Of a stretch of 64,000 nucleotides of DNA, positions 16,905-60,115 are shown piece by piece. A program made the translations under genes and the position numbers. Under the pieces are notes generated by a model. The model ran no database searches, was not told the DNA's origin, and saw nothing but the letters and a program-made list of their open reading frames with translations. The DNA lies in NCBI GenBank assembly GCA_963802945.1, contig CAWDKY010000053.1:96001-160000 (forward strand), in the 5' to 3' direction. Position 1 is the stretch's first letter, and every line of letters begins with the position of its first letter. The DNA comes from an uncultured delta proteobacterium (GTDB lineage Bacteria; Desulfobacterota; RBG-13-43-22).

Positions 16905-17470
16905 TTGAAGATATCAAACGGTAATAGATGATTCAAACACATGTTCCCGTCGAAGATTCGTAGGTGTAATCAACAGACATAAAAATATCATTAAATATTA
17001 ATTGGTTAGGAGAATAGGTTCCGGGATCTCAACGCCTGTCTCGTTTAAATTTCCCGGACCTTTTTCCTTCCATTGCATAGCTATCCATTTCCGTTTGAAA
17101 TCTTCATAAGGGATGTACGCCCCCAATGCTTTAAATCAGCAATTTGATGAGTAAACTTCTTGGCCAATAGGTAATTTGGTTTGTTGATTACCATTAGAAA
17201 TCTGGCGGGTTTGGTGGTCTTAATTGGGAAAAACGTGGGCTACTTTTTAGGGGATCGGAGACTATTTGCAACATTTCTTCCTAAAATGTTGATTTTAAAT
17301 TTTGGCTCTTTATACCATATTACAAACGGTAATTAATCTGTAAAGTCCAGCCCTGCATAGTCCAGTTTTCTTAAGAAGACATTCTCCTTGACTCCTTGCC
17401 TTCCCGAACTGTTTTTCTTCTTGATCATGACATTATATTATCTTATACTCTTTCCATTCAAAAGAAAAGT
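16905..17470 (+). repeat. Island spacer element (copy B)
   Basis: gatatcaaacggtaat...ttcgtaggtgta...ggtcttaattgggaaaaacgtgggctactttttaggggatcggagactat...acatttcttcct...ttatactctttccattcaaaagaaaa, colinear with 21131..21710. Confidence 0.75.
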
Positions 17471-21130: not shown

Positions 21131-21710
21131 TGCACATTTCAAACAGTAATCGTTGATTTTTAGGACTGGCTTCTTAAAACATTTGTAGGTGAATTCAATT
21201 AAGGTCGAAATAGTATTAAAAATTAGCATGTTATGAGAAAGCTGTTGAACCTAATATTTTCTTTCCTGTTTTATTTTCCAATCCTATATCTCTCCATTTC
21301 TTCTCCTATTTATTTCCCTTTGAACTCTTTATAGAATGGCTATCATTTACTGAAAATAATCGGATTGTCCTATTAATTACTATTTGAACTCTGAAGATTT
21401 TGGGGGTCTTAATTTGAAAAAATGAGGACTACTTTTGAGGGGACCGGGGACTATCTGAAACATTTCTTCCTGAAATCCTCAACCTTCCATTTTTGAAAAA
21501 ATACAAGAATTCAATCCGTAATCGTTATCAAGTCGGCAGGAAATTTAAACTATCGGCAAACCAACCAGAAACCCCCACCCAACCCATCCCTTGAATTCCA
21601 GAGTGACTTCTAGGACTCCCAGCTTCCTTACCATTGCTTTCCGCCTTAGTTTTCTCCTTGACACTCTCTTTTTCTTGTCCTATATTTTTTCCAACAAAAA
21701 ACAAACCCTT
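21131..21710 (+). repeat. Island spacer element (copy C, most complete)
   Basis: gcacatttcaaacagtaatcgttgatt...ttgtaggtgaat...ggactacttttgaggggaccggggactat...aagtcggcaggaaatttaaac...aaccaaccagaaaccccca...ctcccagcttcc...TTGACA-17-TATATT. Confidence 0.8.
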
Positions 21711-22408: not shown

Positions 22409-22500
22409 TGAGGTGGTCCCCAAAAATTGGACAATTTGATAAGCTCTGATAAACAGGGAGTGTCGATGGAATAATAAACCCCATTTCTCAAGAAAGAGGT
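22409..22500 (+). mobile_element. Solo IS3-type terminal inverted repeat/left end
   Basis: TGAGGTGGTCCCCAAAAATTGGACAA (TG start). A near-identical copy is at 35386. Confidence 0.6.
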
Positions 22501-25554: not shown

Positions 25555-25769
25555 AAACTCTTTCCTCCTTAATAAAGAAGATTAAACCACCAGCTCTGTT
25601 GTGCGAACCTAATGGGCTCTGCCGGTTAAGGGTGATAAAATCTTCGAAGCCTTAGGTCGGCGGGATTCGCTATTGTGGCTGCTATATTAACGTCTCCCGA
25701 GGGCTTCGTCAAAAGAAAATTAAGAGCCCTGATTCCCTTACAATCTATTTAGATACTCTCCGAGCCGCC

Positions 25770-26040
25770 TCATCTTCTGGTGGTGCGGACTGTTAACTTC
25801 TTTCTGTAATCCTCAAAATTCGATTTTGAAAAAACCAGAAGAGTACAAACAATAATCCTCATCATGGTAGGGAAAAATTTAAACCATTGGCAAACCAACC
25901 AGAGCCCCCACTCAAACCTAAACCCTTGAATTTCAGATAGACTACTCGGATTCTCAGCTTCCTTCCCCTTGCTTTCCGACTTGTTTTCACCTTGACTCAA
26001 TCTTTTTCTTGTTTTATACTCTCCCCATTAAAAAGAAAAG
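25770..26040 (+). repeat. Island spacer element (copy D, 3' half)
   Basis: atttaaaccattggcaaaccaaccagagccccca...gaatttcagatagactactcggattctcagcttcc (EFQIDYSDSQLP)...TTGACT-17-TATACT...aaaaagaaaa. Confidence 0.8.
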
Positions 26041-26108
26041 TCGGATCATTTAAAATCTTTCTTCTCCAGGGTAGGATACATTCAAATTTCAGTAAGGAGG
26101 TATTTGGT

Positions 26109-26420
26109 ATGAAAAAAAGTATTGCAATCTGTATATTGATTTTTTTCTTTCTTTTAATTGTCTTTCCAAAACACACCATGGCTGCATCGCCAGGTGGCAT
26201 CATCGGTGGCGAGATTGTAATGGTAATAGGGACGATGCTTTTACTTCTTTTAATGTCGGAAGAAAATCCTTTTCACAAAGATAAAGAGAAGAAGGAAGAA
26301 AAAGTCTCAAAACATTCCGACTGGGAGATCCAACCCTTGACCAATACAACTTCATTCCAATTGGCCAATGAGAGCCAACAAAAGGAAGTGAATATTTTCC
26401 CTTTGACGATACAGTTTTAA
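26109..26420 (+). CDS. Small hypothetical membrane protein
   Basis: AGGAGG RBS, MKKSIAICILIFFFLLIVF signal-like segment and a second hydrophobic helix. Confidence 0.55.
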   Translation: MKKSIAICILIFFFLLIVFPKHTMAASPGGIIGGEIVMVIGTMLLLLLMSEENPFHKDKEKKEEKVSKHSDWEIQPLTNTTSFQLANESQQKEVNIFPLTIQF

Positions 26421-26438
26421 TCTTGGTCTCATTAGGTG

Positions 26439-26585
26439 TTAATGCTGACCAGGAAGCAGGCTATGTTCCTGGGATAGAAAATAGTGAGGTCCACCACCTG
26501 ATTTGTTTTTGATTTTACCCTCGACCAGCAGGGCCACCTCAAACTTCTGTTTGGAGATGTCAATCCCAAGGGTCGATGTGGGCAT
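26439..26585 (-). pseudogene. IS110-family recombinase N-terminal remnant
   Basis: GAGGGA RBS, MPTSTLGIDISKQKFEVALLVEGKIKNKS (GIDxxK, first catalytic Asp of the DEDD domain). Homology is lost after ~29 aa. Confidence 0.8.
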
Positions 26586-26634
26586 GTCAATTCCCTCTTT
26601 CAATCAGAAGAGACGTCTGATGAGTAAAAGCCTT

Positions 26635-26810
26635 ATCCGAATCAACCTTGCAAGTACAAACTCATTCCAATTATGGAAGGTTTCTGATACCGTACGAGTT
26701 GCTGAACAAAGCAAAGGGAAGAGGATCTAATCTACAAGACATGCTCTTAGGCATCAGGTGAAATACAAATTCTCTCTTCCCATATTACCCCAGCATCCCA
26801 GGGTATTTTA
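26635..26810 (-). ncRNA. Putative IS110 (IS621-like) bridge RNA in the element left end
   Basis: On the minus strand: 5' hairpin TACCCTGG/CTGGGGTA; target loop closed by GGGAAGAG/CTCTTCCC containing GT-ATTTCACCT ... TGTAGATT; donor loop ACGGTATC ... TTCCA-taat-TGGAA ... TTGCAAGGTTG. Motif order matches the IS621 bridge RNA as recalled (GTAGATT, ACAGTATC, TTGCAAGGTTG). Confidence 0.75.
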
Positions 26811-26838
26811 TATCACTTGATAATCCATTAGAACACAA

Positions 26839-26950
26839 GGTGTACTCGTTAAATTCTGTACGGTATGACTATTTTTTAGAAAACTTGTTGAGTTCTTCCC
26901 GAAGTCAGCAAGCCTTCGTTTTGGATAGAACAAAAGAGTTCAACAGTAAT
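26839..26950 (+). repeat. Island spacer element (copy E), cut at its GTAGGTG core by the IS110 left end
   Basis: ggtgtactcgttaaattctgtacggt...cttcccgaag...aagagttcaacagtaatc matches 30540-30560, 35521-35580 and 21466-21522. Confidence 0.7.
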
Positions 26951-27134
26951 CAACGAAAAAAATTGATACTTGCGGGACTTAAAAAGGGCAACGGCACGAT
27001 TTACCCATATTGGGTATATTGGCCAGGGGAAGTTAAACGGAAAGGGGGTATTTGTCCGATTTGTGATATTACAGAGTTAGAGATTTAGCCAAGCTGAACC
27101 CGTTTGATAATATTTTTACATCTATTGAGGGTAC

Positions 27135-27845
27135 TCAGGTCTTTTTTGCTACAACATAATAGAGCGCAACCGTCTCCTTGGAGGGCAGGTACCAAGGCCA
27201 GTCTTCCCCCGTTGGCTGCGTGTCCACGAGATCGATCCAACGAAAAGGCTTGATCAACTCGACACGAAAATGCTCCATAGATCTTCTGGCCATCTCTTGA
27301 ATCTCATGGCGTTTGAACACTACCCGCGCTGGTTTTGCACCTGGCTTGTGCTCAATCACGACGTTGCCACGGAATTCGGTCTGGGTCCCTTTGATCTTAT
27401 ATGTACCGCGCGTATGAAGAGAAAAAATTACTTCTTGTTTCGAAACTCGGGCCAGTTCTTTCAGCGCTCTCTCCACATCCCCTAACAGATAAAATAGCGT
27501 TTCCGCACAGAAGACCCGATCCACCGAGTCATCGGGCATCGGCAGGTGGAGTATATCAGCCAGGACAAGGCACACGTTAGGATAGCCGTTTGCCAATTCT
27601 GCGCTTTTAGCAAGCGCAACAGACGAAAAATCAATGCCAATAAACAAACCGCTTGGGCCACATCTCTTCATTAAATCGTGCAGATAAAAAGTATGTCCGC
27701 AGCCCACATCGCAGATTGTTTCTCCCGGCCTGATCTTCTCAATAGCGAGTTGATAAAAATAGCGGCCAGCTGCCTTTCCCTCCTTGGCTTGATCACTGAA
27801 GATCCTATCCCAGGTTACTCGCGCTTTATCTTCTCCTGACGTCAT
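27135..27845 (-). CDS. Class I SAM-dependent methyltransferase
   Basis: ICDVGCG, GIDFS, ADILHLPMPDDSVD, ALKELARV. Confidence 0.85.
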   Translation of the reverse strand: MTSGEDKARVTWDRIFSDQAKEGKAAGRYFYQLAIEKIRPGETICDVGCGHTFYLHDLMKRCGPSGLFIGIDFSSVALAKSAELANGYPNVCLVLADILHLPMPDDSVDRVFCAETLFYLLGDVERALKELARVSKQEVIFSLHTRGTYKIKGTQTEFRGNVVIEHKPGAKPARVVFKRHEIQEMARRSMEHFRVELIKPFRWIDLVDTQPTGEDWPWYLPSKETVALYYVVAKKT

Positions 27846-30489: not shown

Positions 30490-30790
30490 TAATAATTTCT
30501 ATTTTTCTCATAAACCATAACTTCACGCTTCGTAGATATTCGTTAAATTCGGTACGGTGAGGCCATGTTTGAAAAAATTGAGGATTTCTCCCGTATTCTT
30601 CAAAATTCTCTTTTTGAAAAACCTAAGACTTCAAATAGTAATCCTCATCAAGTCGGCAGGAGATTTAAACCATTGGCCAATCAACCAGAAATCCCCACCC
30701 AAACCTAAAGCCCCCGAACTTCAGATAGACTACTTGGAATCCCAGCTTCCTTTCTATGAGGAAACCCAAGATTAGGATTTCGGAGTTTCC
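30490..30790 (+). repeat. Island spacer element (copy F)
   Basis: ttcgtagatattcgttaaattcggtacggt...taatcctcatcaagtcggcaggagatttaaaccattggccaatcaaccagaaatccccaccc...ELQIDYLESQLP. Confidence 0.75.
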
Positions 30791-35385: not shown

Positions 35386-35460
35386 TGGGGTGGTCCCCAA
35401 AAATTGGACAAGGTGATAAGCCCTGAGTTAGCCCAAAGGAAGCGGCGATGTCCAACCATT
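35386..35460 (+). mobile_element. Solo IS3-type left end (second copy)
   Basis: TGGGGTGGTCCCCAAAAATTGGACAA..tgataagc.ctga, as at 22409. Confidence 0.6.
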
Positions 35461-35464
35461 TCTC

Positions 35465-35600
35465 CCATATTTCCATCCGTACTCGTTAATTTTTCGGTTT
35501 ATCTGTTTAAAGCATTAGTAGGTGTACTCGAGGAATTCGCTAAAGTAAGACCATTTTCGAGAAAACTTGAGGGCTTCTTCCTGTAATGTTGTTTTTCTTA
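35465..35600 (+). repeat. Island spacer element (copy G, 5' part; uninterrupted equivalent of the IS110 site)
   Basis: atatttccatccgtactcgttaatt...cattagtaggtgtactcg...gaccattttcgagaaaacttgagggcttcttcctgtaatgttg. Confidence 0.65.
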
Positions 35601-35719
35601 TTTTATAAATTTATGCAACCTTTCAATCAGAAATAATCAAAAAAGCTGAACTCAAAATTAATATGTGGTACAAGTATTTGGGACAGGTATGCTTCAATAC
35701 AAAATAGCAGGGTGGCGTA

Positions 35720-53254: not shown

Positions 53255-54811
53255 ATGGCCATGAATTATCCTGAGACAAAATTTGAAAAAGATTTTGGGC
53301 CCGGCCCTGAGGCCAGAGTGGAACTGAAAAATGGACGTTTTATAGATGTGGTCAATGGACGTTTTTTTGATGCCGGTATCAGCCTCATGATTCAAGGCTC
53401 CAAAATAATATCGCTGGCCAAAACCTCTGAGCCCGGCGGGATCAAGGCCGACTTCACCGTCGATTGCCAGGGAAAGACCGTTATACCGGGATTGTTCAAT
53501 ACCCATTGTCACATCACGATTACTGCCCCGACCACGCTTCCGGACAGGAAGGATATCAAAGGGTTCAAGGCTTACAGCGATAAACAAATCGAGAAGAACA
53601 TGGCCGAATGTCTGATCCACGGCATCACCACCATAAGGGATGCCTATGCCGAAGATCTGCGCCGGACCAGGCTTCTCAGGGATCGGATTGCTAAAGGTGA
53701 AATCCCCGGCCCCCGTTTCTTACAATCCATCGTCGTTGGTCCTCCTGGGGGATATTTACTGGAGAAGGTTGGATTGGTCGCGAGGTGGATGAGGTCGGCT
53801 TTGGGCATCCCTTCTGTCGCCCATACCCTCCCCTACAGCGGTGGGGTTGAATTCCCGATCGAGGCCTCGGAACAACAGGTCAGGGATGCAGTGGACAGGG
53901 CCATCGATGAACGCGGTGCCGAAGTGATCAAAATCGGTGAGCAGAAAGAAAATATGACCAATTATAAGCCCACCTCGACCATCATGACCCAGAATCAAAT
54001 GAATGCCATTGCCGATCAGGCCAGAAAACGGGGCTTGAAATCGACCATTCATCAGGTTTCCATCGCCTCATTCAAAAAGGCCGTGGAGGCCGGGATTTCC
54101 TCCCTGGCCCATCTTCCCAGAGATGGGGTTCTCTCCCAGCAAGATATCGAAGCTTTTTTGTCAAAAGGCTGCTTCAGCGATCCGACCCTGTCAGTACCCT
54201 ATGATGTCAGTTTTAAGGTCAAAGGAGAGCCCTCCTCTGAAGATCCCGATATGAACCTGTTGACAGAGTTCAGAAACCGGGTCCATAGCACTCTGGTGGA
54301 TGAATATTGGATTCCTGAATTCAAAGCAGGGGCGCAAAAACATTACGACAAGGCCAACTCGGGAAAAATGAAGGTCTTTGGGTTCATGCCCATGACCACC
54401 ATGTTTAAATATTATGCCCCAGCTGCTGTTTACGGCGCCAGGAATATCCGTCTTCTGTTTAAAAACAAGGCAAAGATAACCCTCTCAAACGACGGCGGCA
54501 TTCCCCCCTGCACCCCGGCCATGATGCAGCAGGAGATCGATCTTTTCGATTTGTTTCTCAACCAAGCCGCGGGTGAGAAAATCTTTACCGGTGCAGACGC
54601 CATAAAAATAGCCACGATCAACAGTGCAACCTGCCTGGGGCTGGAAAAGAATCTCGGTTCCATTGAAACCGGAAAGACCGCCGATCTGGCCCTGGTGGAC
54701 GGAGACCCATTCCAGGATCCTCATATAGTGGGCAGCCGGGTAGCCGCCCTTTTCAAAGATGGTAGGTTGGTTATCAACAACTGCGGGCTGAAAATGGAGA
54801 AGGCGGGTTAA
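53255..54811 (+). CDS. Amidohydrolase family protein
   Basis: PGLFNTHCH, HGITTIRD, SLAH, NDGG, GSIETGKTADL. Confidence 0.88.
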   Translation: MAMNYPETKFEKDFGPGPEARVELKNGRFIDVVNGRFFDAGISLMIQGSKIISLAKTSEPGGIKADFTVDCQGKTVIPGLFNTHCHITITAPTTLPDRKDIKGFKAYSDKQIEKNMAECLIHGITTIRDAYAEDLRRTRLLRDRIAKGEIPGPRFLQSIVVGPPGGYLLEKVGLVARWMRSALGIPSVAHTLPYSGGVEFPIEASEQQVRDAVDRAIDERGAEVIKIGEQKENMTNYKPTSTIMTQNQMNAIADQARKRGLKSTIHQVSIASFKKAVEAGISSLAHLPRDGVLSQQDIEAFLSKGCFSDPTLSVPYDVSFKVKGEPSSEDPDMNLLTEFRNRVHSTLVDEYWIPEFKAGAQKHYDKANSGKMKVFGFMPMTTMFKYYAPAAVYGARNIRLLFKNKAKITLSNDGGIPPCTPAMMQQEIDLFDLFLNQAAGEKIFTGADAIKIATINSATCLGLEKNLGSIETGKTADLALVDGDPFQDPHIVGSRVAALFKDGRLVINNCGLKMEKAG

Positions 54812-54841
54812 AGGTTTAGTTTCAAGAAAGTCTTACTGGTT

Positions 54842-54882
54842 CTCAAAATGGGCTACGGATTATCATCCGCACCCCATTTTGA
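54842..54882. terminator. Hairpin after the amidohydrolase gene
   Basis: CTCAAAATGGG..CGGAT-tatc-ATCCG..CCCATTTTGAG. Confidence 0.55.
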
Positions 54883-54898
54883 GGGCGCGAAGCGTCCT

Positions 54899-54954
54899 CG
54901 ACAACAACGAGTTCACTGTGATCTTTAGCGATCCGGCGGAACGATTCGTTGGGC
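54899..54954 (-). other. attC site 1
   Basis: Minus strand GCCCAAC-N5-GTTCC...GATC/GATC...TGAAC-N5-GTTGTCG, just downstream of the methyltransferase stop. Confidence 0.65.
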
Positions 54955-54972
54955 TTTTCTGGTGTGTGCTGC

Positions 54973-55737
54973 TCATTTCTCTCCCCGTATCATCGCCATA
55001 GTTCCCAAAATGAAAGGTACCTTCAACAGGGGTGGGATAAAGGGCGAGTTTCTGGTTTGAATGAGCTCCACTTTGGTTGTTCCCCAGCTCTTGATAGTGG
55101 TGACTAACGCATCTGGATCGCCATACATCTTCTTGATGAGGAATTCGTCTTGAAAAGCGAACTTGCCACCTTTCTTGAGAACCCGCAAAGCTTCACGAAT
55201 AACCTCACGCTTGTCTCTGACACCGCCGACCTCGTGGAAGACAAAATTGCTCACGGCCGCATCGAAGTATTCGTCAGGGAATGGCAATGATGCGGCGCTG
55301 CCTTTCTGGAAGGTTACGCGGTCACTGACTCCTTCAATCGCGGCGTTGCGTTCGCAGACCTTCTTCGAGTAATCCCACTTCTTTCCCCAATAGTCTACCC
55401 CGAAGACTTGTGCCCTACCGTGCTTCTGAGCCAGTTTGATGGCCAGGGCTCCGTTCCCGCACCCTATGTCCACGGCTTTGCCTTCTCCATTCCAGTCCAA
55501 ATGCTCTAAAACGAGCCGCCAAATGGATTCTTGCACATTTCCTGCTTTAGGGGAAAGCTTGAAGCGAACATACCATAGAAAGGCGGCGACCAGCACGAAG
55601 AATGCAGCCAGAATCAACAGGAAAGACCACATGAGACTCGATGCCAGGAACAGGAGTGCTATGGCGAGAGGAACATAAATCATCGGTTTTGGAGTCCAAT
55701 TGCCATAGTCTGGATTCTCTCTGATCTGTCCGTTCAT
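54973..55737 (-). CDS. Class I SAM methyltransferase with N-terminal TM hairpin (gene cassette)
   Basis: VDIGCGNG, GVDYW, SLPFPDEYFD, FHEV, RVLKKGG. Confidence 0.88.
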   Translation of the reverse strand: MNGQIRENPDYGNWTPKPMIYVPLAIALLFLASSLMWSFLLILAAFFVLVAAFLWYVRFKLSPKAGNVQESIWRLVLEHLDWNGEGKAVDIGCGNGALAIKLAQKHGRAQVFGVDYWGKKWDYSKKVCERNAAIEGVSDRVTFQKGSAASLPFPDEYFDAAVSNFVFHEVGGVRDKREVIREALRVLKKGGKFAFQDEFLIKKMYGDPDALVTTIKSWGTTKVELIQTRNSPFIPPLLKVPFILGTMAMIRGEK

Positions 55738-55768
55738 ATGCTCCAGTCCTTCATGTTTGCTTGTTGTA

Positions 55769-55886
55769 ACCCAACATAGAGTTCAGTGCACGCCGCCCCG
55801 AATCAGAACGAAGGTAGCAGTTCATTTGGACTGATCCCGCGCTTTAGAACCAATCTCAGGCGTTGCACTGCAACGACTTGTTAGGT
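55769..55886 (-). other. attC site 2
   Basis: Minus strand ACCTAAC-aagtc-GTTGCAGTGCAACGCC...GGCGTGCACTGAAC-tctat-GTTGGGT: RYYYAAC/GTTRRRY core with extrahelical bases. Confidence 0.85.
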
Positions 55887-57568: not shown

Positions 57569-60052
57569 ATGAGTTTAGCCGAACGAACAATAGGTCCAAA
57601 GGTTTCTCCGCCACCTTCGCGGGTGACCAAGGAGATGAGGAAAAGTATTGTTTACCAAAACAAGAGCAGTAGAGGCTCGGGAAGGATCGAAGCCGCCAAA
57701 GGGAATGTGACCCGGGTTAAGGAAGAGGGGCGCAATCCTTATCGTGATGAGGTTAAATTGTGCATTGAACGGGCGCGGTTGATTACCGAAGGGTATCAAG
57801 CCTCAGAAGGAGAGCCCATGGTCCTCCGGCGGGCCAAGGCCATGGCCCACTTTCTGGACAATCGAACCCTCTACATCTTACCTAACGAACGTATCGTCGG
57901 AAATGTCTCCAGTGAACCTTGCTCCATGATCACCTTTCCTGAAAAATGGAGCAGTTGGCTGGACAAGGCCATCGACACCGAGTACAGCCAATTAGTTACC
58001 GATGAAAAACGGGAGGAACTCCACCGGATCCATAAATACTGGAAAGGGAAATCGGTTCACGGCATGGAGCGCAATCTCTTGCCCAAGGACATCCTCTACT
58101 ACTGGTTTTATCCCAACCAGGGTGTCTTCTTGTGGCGCCATGGCGGCCATGTGGGTTCGCCGAATTACACCAGAATTTTCCAAACCGGCTTGAAGGGGAT
58201 CATCGCCGACGCCAAAAACAAGCTGGATGAAATCAAATCCGATCCGGAACTCTATTTGCATACCCGGGAATTTCTCAAGAAAAAAGCCTTTTATGAGGCG
58301 GTGATTATTTCTTCCGAAGCGGTGATTCGTCAGGGCAAAAGGTTTTCAGAGCTTGCCAGGCAAGAGGCGGCCAAGGCCACGGATCCCAAGAGAAAGGCGG
58401 AGCTGGAGGAAATGGCCGAGGTTTGCGCCTGGGTGCCGGAAAATCAACCCCGTACCCTTCATGAGGCCTTGCAGTTCTATTGGTTTATCAATCTGGTGGT
58501 CCGTGTGCTCGACATTCAGACCTCCGGTAATGGCGACCGGGTGGACCAGATCTTTTATCCCTTTTACAAAAAGGATAAGGAAGATGGCCTGTTGACTTAC
58601 GAGCAGGCCCAGGAACTGGTGGAGCACCTGCTGCTTAAATTCAATGAAGAAGGGGCTTTGATTCCCCCCTCTCACCCCTCGGCCGGGCCTTTGATCACCC
58701 GCGTGGTAACCATAGGAGGGGTGGATACCGAAGGTGTTGACGCCACCAATGAAATGACCTATATCATCATGGATGCCAAAGACGAGGTGGGTTTCAATCA
58801 ACCGGCCCTGGCCGTCAGGCTCCATCCGCAAACACCCCAAAGTTTGTATCGAAAAATCATCTCCTCATTGCTTAAACAACCCGGTGTTTATTCCTTTTTT
58901 AATGACAATATGATGATCCCCTTCCTGATGAACCTCGGCCTCCCCCTGGAAGATGCCCGGGATTACGGGACCGACGGCTGTATGCGATGGATCGTACCCG
59001 GCAAGGCCATGTGTCAAAGGGCCTTGGGAGGCACCTTTGTCCTTCCCAAGTGCTTTGAATACGCCTTGTACCAGGGAGTGGATAAATTCAGCAATAAACA
59101 GGTCGGGGCCAAAACCACGGACCCCTTGACCTGGACCTCGGTGGATGATGCCATGCAGGCCTACCTGGAGCAGGTAAAATTCTTTTTACACAAACTGGTG
59201 ACCATCTATAATCTCGTCGATGCCTTGGAAGAAGAATGGTTGCCCCAGCCCTTTCTCTCGGCTGTGGTGGACGGCTGTCTGGAAGCCGGGAAAGACTGTC
59301 GCGAGTTCAAATATTATCATAATACCATCATTCAACCAGTCGGCCAGGTCACGATCATCAATTCCCTGGCGGCCATTAAGAAGCTGGTGTTTGACGAGAA
59401 AAAGGTTAAGATGGCCGACCTTCTTGAAGCCTTGAAAAACAATTGGGAAGGCAGGGAAGATCTGCGTCAGCAATTTATTAATGACGCACCCAAATGGGGC
59501 AATGATGAAGATTATGTGGACCTCATCGGCCGGGAATTCTACAAGAAGACCAACCAGGCCTTTAAAAGCTTTAAAAATATCTGGGGCTGGCCCTTCAATG
59601 AAGACGGGACCGGGGCTTCTTCCTATTACGATTACAGCGGGATGACCGGGGCCACACCCGACGGCCGGAAGGATCTGGATTTGTTTAATGACGGAACCGT
59701 ATCTCCGGTCATCGGCACGGATAAGAAAGGTCCTCTGGCTACCATGAAATCCATCAGCAAGTTAGACCACGCCGGAACTTTCACCCACCTGTTCAACCAA
59801 AAATTCACTCCTCAAGAGCTGAAGAAGAACAACGGGGCCAATTTCATCTCCCTGCTGAAGACCTTTGTTGATCTTGGCATTCACCACACCCAATTTAATG
59901 TTATCGACCGGGAGACGTTGCTCGATGCTCAGATGCATCCGGATCAATATTCCGATCTGGTGGTCAGGACTGCCGGGCTGGCGGCTTATTTTGTGGATAT
60001 GACCAAAGGAGTGCAGGACCAGATCATTGAGAGAACAGAATTAAGTCTTTAA
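57569..60052 (+). CDS. Glycyl radical enzyme of unknown class
   Basis: ERARLITE, LRRAKA, GRxDQ-like GDRVDQ, PKWGND, GATPDGR, HTQFNV. Gly loop LVVRTAGLAAYF, Cys loop DGCMRW. Confidence 0.9.
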   Translation: MSLAERTIGPKVSPPPSRVTKEMRKSIVYQNKSSRGSGRIEAAKGNVTRVKEEGRNPYRDEVKLCIERARLITEGYQASEGEPMVLRRAKAMAHFLDNRTLYILPNERIVGNVSSEPCSMITFPEKWSSWLDKAIDTEYSQLVTDEKREELHRIHKYWKGKSVHGMERNLLPKDILYYWFYPNQGVFLWRHGGHVGSPNYTRIFQTGLKGIIADAKNKLDEIKSDPELYLHTREFLKKKAFYEAVIISSEAVIRQGKRFSELARQEAAKATDPKRKAELEEMAEVCAWVPENQPRTLHEALQFYWFINLVVRVLDIQTSGNGDRVDQIFYPFYKKDKEDGLLTYEQAQELVEHLLLKFNEEGALIPPSHPSAGPLITRVVTIGGVDTEGVDATNEMTYIIMDAKDEVGFNQPALAVRLHPQTPQSLYRKIISSLLKQPGVYSFFNDNMMIPFLMNLGLPLEDARDYGTDGCMRWIVPGKAMCQRALGGTFVLPKCFEYALYQGVDKFSNKQVGAKTTDPLTWTSVDDAMQAYLEQVKFFLHKLVTIYNLVDALEEEWLPQPFLSAVVDGCLEAGKDCREFKYYHNTIIQPVGQVTIINSLAAIKKLVFDEKKVKMADLLEALKNNWEGREDLRQQFINDAPKWGNDEDYVDLIGREFYKKTNQAFKSFKNIWGWPFNEDGTGASSYYDYSGMTGATPDGRKDLDLFNDGTVSPVIGTDKKGPLATMKSISKLDHAGTFTHLFNQKFTPQELKKNNGANFISLLKTFVDLGIHHTQFNVIDRETLLDAQMHPDQYSDLVVRTAGLAAYFVDMTKGVQDQIIERTELSL

Positions 60053-60065
60053 GTCGAGAATAATT

Positions 60066-60115
60066 CACCCCCACCCCTGCCCTCCCCCCTCGGAGGGGGA
60101 GGGTGCGGAAGGGGG
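60066..60115. repeat. GC-rich palindromic intergenic element
   Basis: CACCCTGCCCTCCCCCCT-cgg-AGGGGGAGGGTG. Confidence 0.5.

Follow-up and report, generated by a model that had tools for sequence, protein, structure and literature searches.

IS621 of Escherichia coli (PDB 8wt6) carries in its left end an RNA with a 5' stem-loop and two guide loops, has a CT core, and targets a multicopy extragenic repeat, stated in PMC11208160 to be the repetitive extragenic palindromic (REP) elements. We have analyzed a locus of the same type in a 64,000-nucleotide stretch of DNA from an uncultured delta proteobacterium (Desulfobacterota; assembly GCA_963802945.1, contig CAWDKY010000053.1, positions 96,001 to 160,000 of the forward strand), which is called the window here and to which all coordinates without prefix refer. 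Its positions 26839-26499, read on the minus strand, are very probably the decayed left third of an IS110-family insertion sequence (IS) of the IS621/ISCro4 bridge-recombinase type, with an orphan bridge RNA that is most likely inert. G000 denotes the source genome, C53 the contig bearing the window and other C numbers further G000 contigs. G003, G005 and G013 are other genomes of the same genus, G005 being the closest relative. L030, L031 and L032 are metagenome contigs, and L033, L035, L037 and L038 are distant IS110 loci.

The likeness to IS621 includes the RNA with its 5' stem-loop and two guide loops, the CT core, the multicopy extragenic target and the protein. The recombinase of the full-length relative in L031 aligns with that of IS621 end to end, and their two Pfam domains are the same. 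Further points of likeness are the donor arm ACGGTAT/ACAGTAT and the motif UUGCAAGG, which are shared by the relatives aligned with the window RNA. Unlike IS621, the element found here has as its target a lineage-specific repeat of ~170-260 nt with no predicted palindromic fold, and the window copy is without a recombinase. Its DNA identity to IS621 is below blastn detection, and a blastn search of E. coli DNA (5,426 genomes) gave no match to the IS. Relatives from enterobacterial plasmids have ~46-48% protein identity to the L031 recombinase. The closest solved structure to this recombinase is that of ISCro4 (PDB 9t56), a likeness drawn from protein comparison alone.

ISPpu9 and ISPpu10 of Pseudomonas putida also belong to the IS110 family, and their insertions occupy a single fixed position in a REP-type repeat. 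All ISPpu10 insertions are reported to map to one conserved intergenic sequence. For ISPpu9, PMC12288879 describes orphan ssr9 small RNA genes away from the IS, one of which is linked to a truncated transposase fragment. However, Ssr9 is encoded downstream of the transposase gene and is dispensable for transposition (PMC12288879), whereas the orphan found here is a left-end bridge RNA; furthermore, the core is AG in ISPpu9 and ISPpu10 and CT here. These orphan ssr9 genes, together with recombinase-only IS110 elements taken to use RNA in trans, are the nearest precedents. In full-text literature searches no paper spoke of an 'orphan bridge RNA', an 'orphan bRNA' or a 'standalone bridge RNA', nor did IS110 occur in combination with 'imprecise excision', 'excision scar' or 'pseudo-core'.

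The left end, its bridge RNA and the recombinase remnant

The identity and architecture of the element, its guide code, its IS ends and its target repeat, as well as the absence of its recombinase from the assembly, were shown by the analysis. The features of the locus, all on the minus strand, are the following.

26840..26965, minus strand: left half of the target repeat, ending in AGTACAC (left target arm), by the nhmmer repeat model
26838..26839, minus strand: CT core at the junction of target and IS left end, CAC-CT followed by TGTG, common to 8/8 distinct left ends
26499..26839, minus strand: IS fragment, IS positions 1-341 by blastn against the full-length IS of L031 (88.6% identity over 341 nt)
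26827..26832, minus strand: TCTAAT, likely -10 of a circle-junction promoter, read by eye from the L031 and L032 ends
26807..26815, minus strand: TGATATAAA, an extended -10-like motif just upstream of the RNA 5' stem-loop, in all copies, by eye only
26628..26804, minus strand: bridge RNA gene with 5' stem-loop, target-binding loop and donor-binding loop, by covariance model R1 and RNAalifold consensus
26756..26764, minus strand: left target guide and core (ATTTCAC-CT), ATTTCACCT; the homologous L033 columns equal the L033 left flank
26732..26738, minus strand: right target guide CTTGTAG, predicting the right arm CT-ACAAG, by homologous L033 columns
26686..26693, minus strand: left donor guide ACGGTATC, identical with ACGGTAT-CT, the right end in L032 and in the C53:48463-49191 fragment
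26647..26651, minus strand: right donor guide GCAAG, reverse complement of CT-TGC
26499..26585, minus strand: first 29 codons of a DEDD recombinase, by tblastn with the L031 recombinase (residues 1-29, 89.7% identity)

On this strand the left target arm AGTACAC (26846-26840) is followed by the core CT and by TGTGTTC. After the core the IS sequence reads TGTGTTCTAATGG and continues with a stem-loop and two stem-enclosed loops, the first holding ATTTCACCT and CTTGTAG and the second ACGGTATC and GCAAG. All coordinates of the original prediction for flank, core and guides were correct when checked on the minus strand. The fragment thus comprises the left end, the complete bridge RNA (26804-26628) and the first 29 recombinase codons. 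It breaks after ...AAATCA (26499), and the DNA beyond (26041-26497) is unique in the genome. The recombinase ATG is at 26585, within an open reading frame (ORF) of 54 aa (26439..26603) that opens MPTSTLGIDISKQKFEVALLVEGKIKNKS. Of its codons, 26/29 are identical to residues 1-29 of the full-length recombinase; the frame then crosses unrelated DNA up to a stop at 26439, and no Pfam domain was detected in it. The window copy itself does not encode recombinase beyond codons 1-29 and is a remnant, not an autonomous element.

Covariance model R1 was built from three copies (window, G013 and G003). The window RNA scores 206.5 bits over the full model, being one of its three training sequences, and three independent metagenome copies score 198-212 bits. 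R1 also matches four of six distant IS110 loci from plasmids over the full model, in coding-strand orientation and immediately upstream of the gene (Leptolyngbya 33.8, E. coli plasmid 18.8, Pantoea 14.7 and Salmonella 14.4 bits), with matches ending 14-32 nt before the recombinase start. This placement, in the left non-coding end, on the same strand and upstream of the recombinase, is common to the window, L030, L031, L032, L033, L035, L037 and L038. In a ten-sequence alignment, 398/440 cells (90.5%) are standard pairs and 32/46 pairs show compensatory change; five rows of alignment A3 (four reverse-strand matches and the match at window 59959) had been dropped before the pair count. Controls in which the 3' partner was slid by 1-3 columns gave 35-53% pairing and 4-11 compensatory pairs, while 500 column shuffles gave a mean pairing of 72% and a maximum of 21 compensatory pairs. 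In the window RNA, 43/46 model pairs are standard. A fold with two guide loops had been expected: the RNAalifold consensus has both loops, but the single-sequence fold of the window is weak by itself (z = -1.78; 11/200 shuffles fold as well). The claim of an IS110 left end of IS621 type with a two-loop bridge RNA was borne out by the full-length relative and by the covariance model. An R1 match of 15.4 bits at 59959-60098 falls within a long ORF resembling a glycyl-radical enzyme and was taken as chance.

Rfam gave no match in the whole window at the gathering score, and only three chance-level eukaryotic families (snoRNA, miRNA) in 26000-27200 at E up to 10. Since six loci that do contain IS110 genes likewise went without a match (E up to 0.1), the negative counts neither for nor against; Rfam 15 apparently has no model able to see this RNA class.

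Full-length relatives, guide code and IS ends

A 20-nt left-end pattern used as query, of which TGATATAAA is a part, led to the three metagenome contigs L030, L031 and L032. The element in L031 is complete and measures 1237 bp with both CT cores included; it has a left end, the RNA, a 322-aa ORF and a right end. The 322-aa protein matches PF01548 (92.4 bits) and PF02371 (92.7 bits). It aligns over residues 5-320 with the IS621 transposase (PDB 8wt6, E 5.3e-78) and, as best solved-structure match, with ISCro4 (PDB 9t56, E 3.7e-79, residues 5-320). The element of L032 is full-length with a frameshifted recombinase, and the L030 copy ends at IS position 506. G013 holds IS 1-217 (on two near-identical contigs) and G003 holds IS 1-209, both with no recombinase ORF adjoining; a pattern scan of genome contigs returned only these two copies, already found. 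The junctions of L031 and L032 read left target-CT-TGTG...GTAT-CT-AC. The core dinucleotide is thus present at both ends and the insertion is site-specific. Comparison of the window with assembled contigs from four sequencing runs gave only related IS copies from other samples; contigs X3 and X4 run on past 26499 with intact IS sequence. The 24 sequencing runs listed as sharing words with the window do so to a small extent (13% of words or less in each), and no RNA run appeared among the listed matches.

The names and orientation of the guides in the window RNA in part follow those of IS621, and the code was then tested with L033. The L033 columns homologous to the window guides read TTCACGG-CT, TATGAAG and ACAGTATC, and its own junctions read CTCACGG-CT followed by TGTATG and ACAGTAT-CT followed by TCATAG. 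Its left target guide shares 8 consecutive bases (TCACGG-CT) with its own flank, its right target guide TATGAAG is the exact reverse complement of the CT-TCATA right flank, and its left donor guide ACAGTATC matches its own end exactly. The guide assignment therefore holds, and the positions proposed earlier for the window guides are these same alignment columns. The motif UUGCAAGGU is kept in 8/10 aligned RNAs. The window RNA is predicted to have ATTTCAC-CT-ACAAG as target and ACGGTAT-CT-TG(T/C) as donor; the right target guide had originally been given as TGTAG (26736-26732). The IS left end starts CT-TGT, so pairing of GCAAG requires one G:T wobble.

The right end, unseen in the window, had been predicted blind to read ACGGTAT-CT. 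This is exact in L032, which ends ...AACGGTAT-CT before ACAAGTC, and in the right-end fragment of G000 described below. L031 ends ...AACAGTAT-CT before ACTAATC, and its ACAGTAT-CT is one transition off the guide (6/7 bases, a G:T wobble being possible). The search for full-length copies thus recovered L031 (intact) and L032 (frameshifted) with ends as predicted. This shows that the bridge-RNA guide code is legible enough in raw sequence for an unseen IS end to be predicted exactly, and the mechanistic predictions made at the outset hold.

On the target side, 5-6/7 left-arm bases agree between guide and left flank in all six guide-bearing copies, and 4/5 right-arm bases agree in L031 and L032. 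The own guide fits the flank better than the other variant in four of the six copies, ties in one and is worse in the window copy. Positions 2 and 4 are variable in both guides and targets, six copies being too few to claim covariation.

In the right end, TTGACA (L031) or TTGATA (L032) lies 12 nt short of the end of the core, to which the left end adds 5 nt. Joined ends would put the -35 TTGACA exactly 17 nt from TCTAAT, forming a putative junction promoter. This spacing fits the junction-promoter model of IS621 (PMC11208160) and the reported weak expression of IS621 RNA at resident loci (PMC13626964). The window copy has lost the -35 box, located in the missing right end. As read by eye, TGATATAAA is another putative promoter element; a sigma-70-type promoter scan of 26400-27000 detected none.

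The target repeat and the insertion sites

The DNA flanking the left end belongs to a modular, intergenic repeat of ~170-260 nt, for which a profile was built from eight uninterrupted copies. The nhmmer model matches 26965-26828 (model positions 15-156, E 4.6e-14), and the window copies are at 35415-35655, 30537-30652, 26828-26965, 21132-21196 and 17272-17353. It also has a GATTAC..TTTGAAAT-like motif in direct repetition at a distance of ~150 nt. There are 93 nhmmer matches (E up to 1e-3) on 29 contigs of G000, of which 44 span the core. By BLAST, the family is present in 8/14 genus genomes (7/13 besides G000) and is abundant only in G000 and G005. The repeat has no match in Rfam, and RNAalifold on nine copies predicts 0 pairs. 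Its possible reading frames, as judged by reading them, contain stops.

Eight distinct left junctions were compared, those of the window, C64:14361, C16:285022, G013, G003, L030, L031 and L032, a near-identical twin of C64:14361 at C16:313617 being counted once. All eight read CAC-CT, and all five right junctions begin AC. Five of the left junctions are within significant matches to the repeat profile, and those of L032, G013 and G003 have weak or no similarity to it. The insertion position is thus CAC-CT followed by AC in a multicopy repeat.

Among the genome sites nearest to the predicted 14-mer, 3/3 at one mismatch and 10/36 at two lie inside repeat matches, which cover well under 1% of the 4.37-Mb genome (an estimate from 93 short matches, not computed). 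The 39 sites with <=2 mismatches are not clearly more than those obtained with shuffled arms (16.4 ± 9.6, maximum 46), and therefore site placement carries the signal. An exact ATTTCAC-CT-ACA site is found at C57:10441, and the scar at C64:14361 has the flank ATTTCAC-CT. The three near-target sites reported earlier in the window do read AATTCAC-CT-ACAA, ATTACAC-CT-ACGA and AGTACAC-CT-ACTA. The original prediction held the IS to be specialised for an island spacer repeat. Its use of one position of a multicopy repeat stands, but this repeat is genome-wide rather than confined to the island. A further claim, that use by the IS supports a functional GTAGGTG core, does not follow from the evidence: multicopy targeting does not show function, and the repeat has neither an Rfam match nor a consensus fold.

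An empty-site comparison for the window insertion was tried and abandoned, the neighbouring methyltransferase/cytochrome cassette having no orthologue in G005, G010, G013 or G003, where only repeats matched. Positions 26100-26497 have no match among the places listed in the comparison with the other genus genomes. Different repeat modules (families D1, D3 and D4) at 25570-26060 match many places in all 13 other genus genomes. A 41-nt repeat is present at 22409-22449 and 35386-35426 (a 90% identical pair) and at about 1760-1800 of L014; it also lies ~25 nt past the truncation point of the G003 orphan copy, and may be the end of another mobile element.

Decay of the copies and the state of the orphan RNA

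By analogy with published IS621 work, the element would have been inserted at the CAC-CT/AC core of the repeat by bridge-RNA-guided recombination, in which the RNA would pair with the repeat through its target loop and with the joined IS ends through its donor loop. Everything past IS position 341, including recombinase residues 30-322, the right end and the -35 box, was later lost. What remains is a structurally intact orphan bridge RNA gene, most likely inert because its partner enzyme is absent and a strong promoter would form only across the right-end/left-end junction, lost here. The window object is an ordinary decayed IS621-clade element with a surviving bridge RNA, a dead transposon end whose biology is already explained by the published work on IS621. 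It gives the IS621 clade an environmental, Desulfobacterota-type lineage with its own landing-pad repeat. The decayed copies, comprising orphan RNAs, one right-end fragment and two CT-to-CT stubs, form a small natural record of element death.

The right-end fragment (IS 510-1237) is at C53:48463-49191 on the + strand, 47.5 kb upstream of the window start and 74 kb from the left fragment. It is 90.1% identical to L031, its reading frame shifts near residue 128, and its end ...AACGGTAT-CT precedes ACTACTC and the repeat's right half. A 6.1-kb segment that begins with this fragment is absent from G005. The truncations of L030 (~3450) and of C53:48463 fall <=4 nt apart in IS coordinates (506 and 510), which may be a coincidence or mark a fragile or insertion-prone site.

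By tblastn with the L031 protein, the whole G000 assembly contains only residues 1-29 at the window locus, the frameshifted residues 86-322 at C53:48463-49174 and, besides these, two distant IS110 matches. Neither this assembly nor 20 further family genomes (21 in all) yielded an intact cognate recombinase, the only finds being the G000 fragment and, in G005, a 71%-identical piece interrupted by a stop codon. Three PF01548 matches (C32, C14 and C17), considered as possible full-length copies, were judged by reading their sequences to be unrelated IS110 members. These recombinase genes, two open and one broken, are at C32:111.4-112.8 kb, C14:31.57-32.59 kb and C17:27.6-27.9 kb.

The left fragment (IS 1-341) and the right-end fragment may be explained as one copy split by an inversion with a breakpoint inside the IS. 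They share a contig, on which they are oppositely oriented without overlap, complementary repeat halves flank them (left half 26840-26965, right half C53:49190-49288), and their divergence from L031 is similar (88.6% and 90.1% identity). However, G005 is collinear with G000 from C53:45872-48432 to 54561-55842 in the same orientation, lacking only the 6.1-kb segment, so that the DNA immediately within the supposed inversion has its ancestral orientation. Nor is the direct periodicity of 4.3-4.8 kb among the island repeats broken across 26498; GC skew was uninformative on this question. The collinearity of G005 across the breakpoint led us to reject inversion as the leading reading, and we regard it as unlikely; separate, independently truncated copies are favoured. 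A non-autonomous, MITE-like mini-element, keeping both recombination ends and mobilised by full-length copies, would account for three recombinase-less copies in three different genomic contexts. But no recombinase-less copy ends in the donor left arm ACGGTAT-CT, and the donor junction read by the RNA donor loop cannot form without the right end. Moreover, the breakpoints differ (IS 341, 217 and 209; L030 at 506) and the break enters unrelated DNA. With these differing breakpoints and no right end, the mini-element was rejected and is extremely improbable.

The orphan RNA may instead still be in use: transcribed from a weak resident promoter, it would guide a cognate recombinase that an unassembled copy or an incoming element provides in trans, with insertions or rearrangements at the repeat as the outcome. 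Such activity is consistent with the 43/46 pairs of the window RNA, with intact RNAs in the orphan copies of two other genus genomes (44/46 pairs in G013 and 42/46 in G003) and with the near-perfect target sites at C57:10441 and C64:14361. The IS621 bridge RNA is reported to work when expressed in trans (PMC11208160), and recombinase-only IS110 elements without a 5' untranslated region have been described (preprint 10.64898/2026.08.14.744561). Against it stand the lack of an intact cognate recombinase in the assembly and the 21 family genomes and of a sigma-70-type promoter in the scanned resident context. The RNA is also no better conserved than the dead coding stub, with 159/177 and 121/129 identities to L032, respectively. 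In addition, the finds of left-end orphans are biased, such orphans being expected by design because the searches began from left-end sequence. Trans activity, put forward in the original prediction, is not supported by this evidence, and we consider it quite improbable. There is an equally slight chance that orphan bridge RNAs are kept in three genus genomes as stand-alone guides aimed at the lineage's own repeat. If so, they could programme an incoming or unassembled recombinase, steer insertions or rearrangements to the landing pad, or act as decoys.

Some observations weigh against our reading of the window copy as a dead remnant placed by its own guide code. The RNA gene is not visibly degraded, with 43/46 pairs against 44-45 beside longer recombinase genes, and its -10-like motif is kept; sequence alone therefore leaves room for activity. 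G000 is a 72-contig metagenome assembly with 6.7% estimated contamination, and such assemblies drop intact multicopy IS, so that intact copies may have gone unassembled. The covariation alignment was fitted to the model, which inflates pair counts, and 6/10 of its rows are close relatives. Finally, the predicted target agrees only in part with the copy's own insertion site: CAC-CT is kept, but the flank AGTACAC matches its own guide ATTTCAC at only 5/7 left-arm bases and the variant AGTGCAC at 6/7. Either the guide drifted after insertion or the copy was placed by the RNA of another copy.

The two stubs consist of left target-CT-(first 36-46 nt of the IS)-CT-right target. One is at C64:14323-14361 (IS 1-39; twin at C16:313579-313617) and the other at C16:285022-285075 (IS 1-48). 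At C64:14361 the repeat unit is otherwise continuous (nhmmer E 6.3e-28); precisely at its core is a 38-nt insert, formed by the first 36 nt of the left end and CT, and followed by ACTAATG. The left end at C16:285022 runs as far as an internal ...GACG-CT, after which the repeat goes on with ACAAC. Both stubs have their right breakpoint exactly at the IS boundary and their left one at a CT within the left end, while four other truncations (IS 341, 506, 217 and 209) have no clean CT junction. The stubs look like recombinase products rather than random deletions, and may be traces of excision in which the bridge recombinase mis-paired at CT dinucleotides within the left end, although the arms beside these internal CTs resemble neither guide. 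The decayed set may thus also record off-register recombination at core dinucleotides. The ISPpu9 transposase recombines at neighbouring core dinucleotides when the ends are mutated (PMC12288879), and a preprint abstract reports 'half-match' excision by IS621; neither describes such stubs. The C64 contig is 95.7% identical to 9.2 kb of C16 (306907-316088) and is probably a strain-variant contig, in line with the contamination estimate.

The G013 orphan copy lies, on two contigs, ~150 nt from a ~295-aa gene (L013 471-1358, L019 1858-2763) that by eye appears to be a putative tyrosine recombinase. Small internal pieces of the left end also occur in unrelated contexts, at C14:174525-174567 (IS 140-182), G011:C304:8883-8945 (IS 187-249) and G013:C207:26200-26234 (IS 63-97). 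The C14 piece, together with its flanks, recurs in contigs of run X1.

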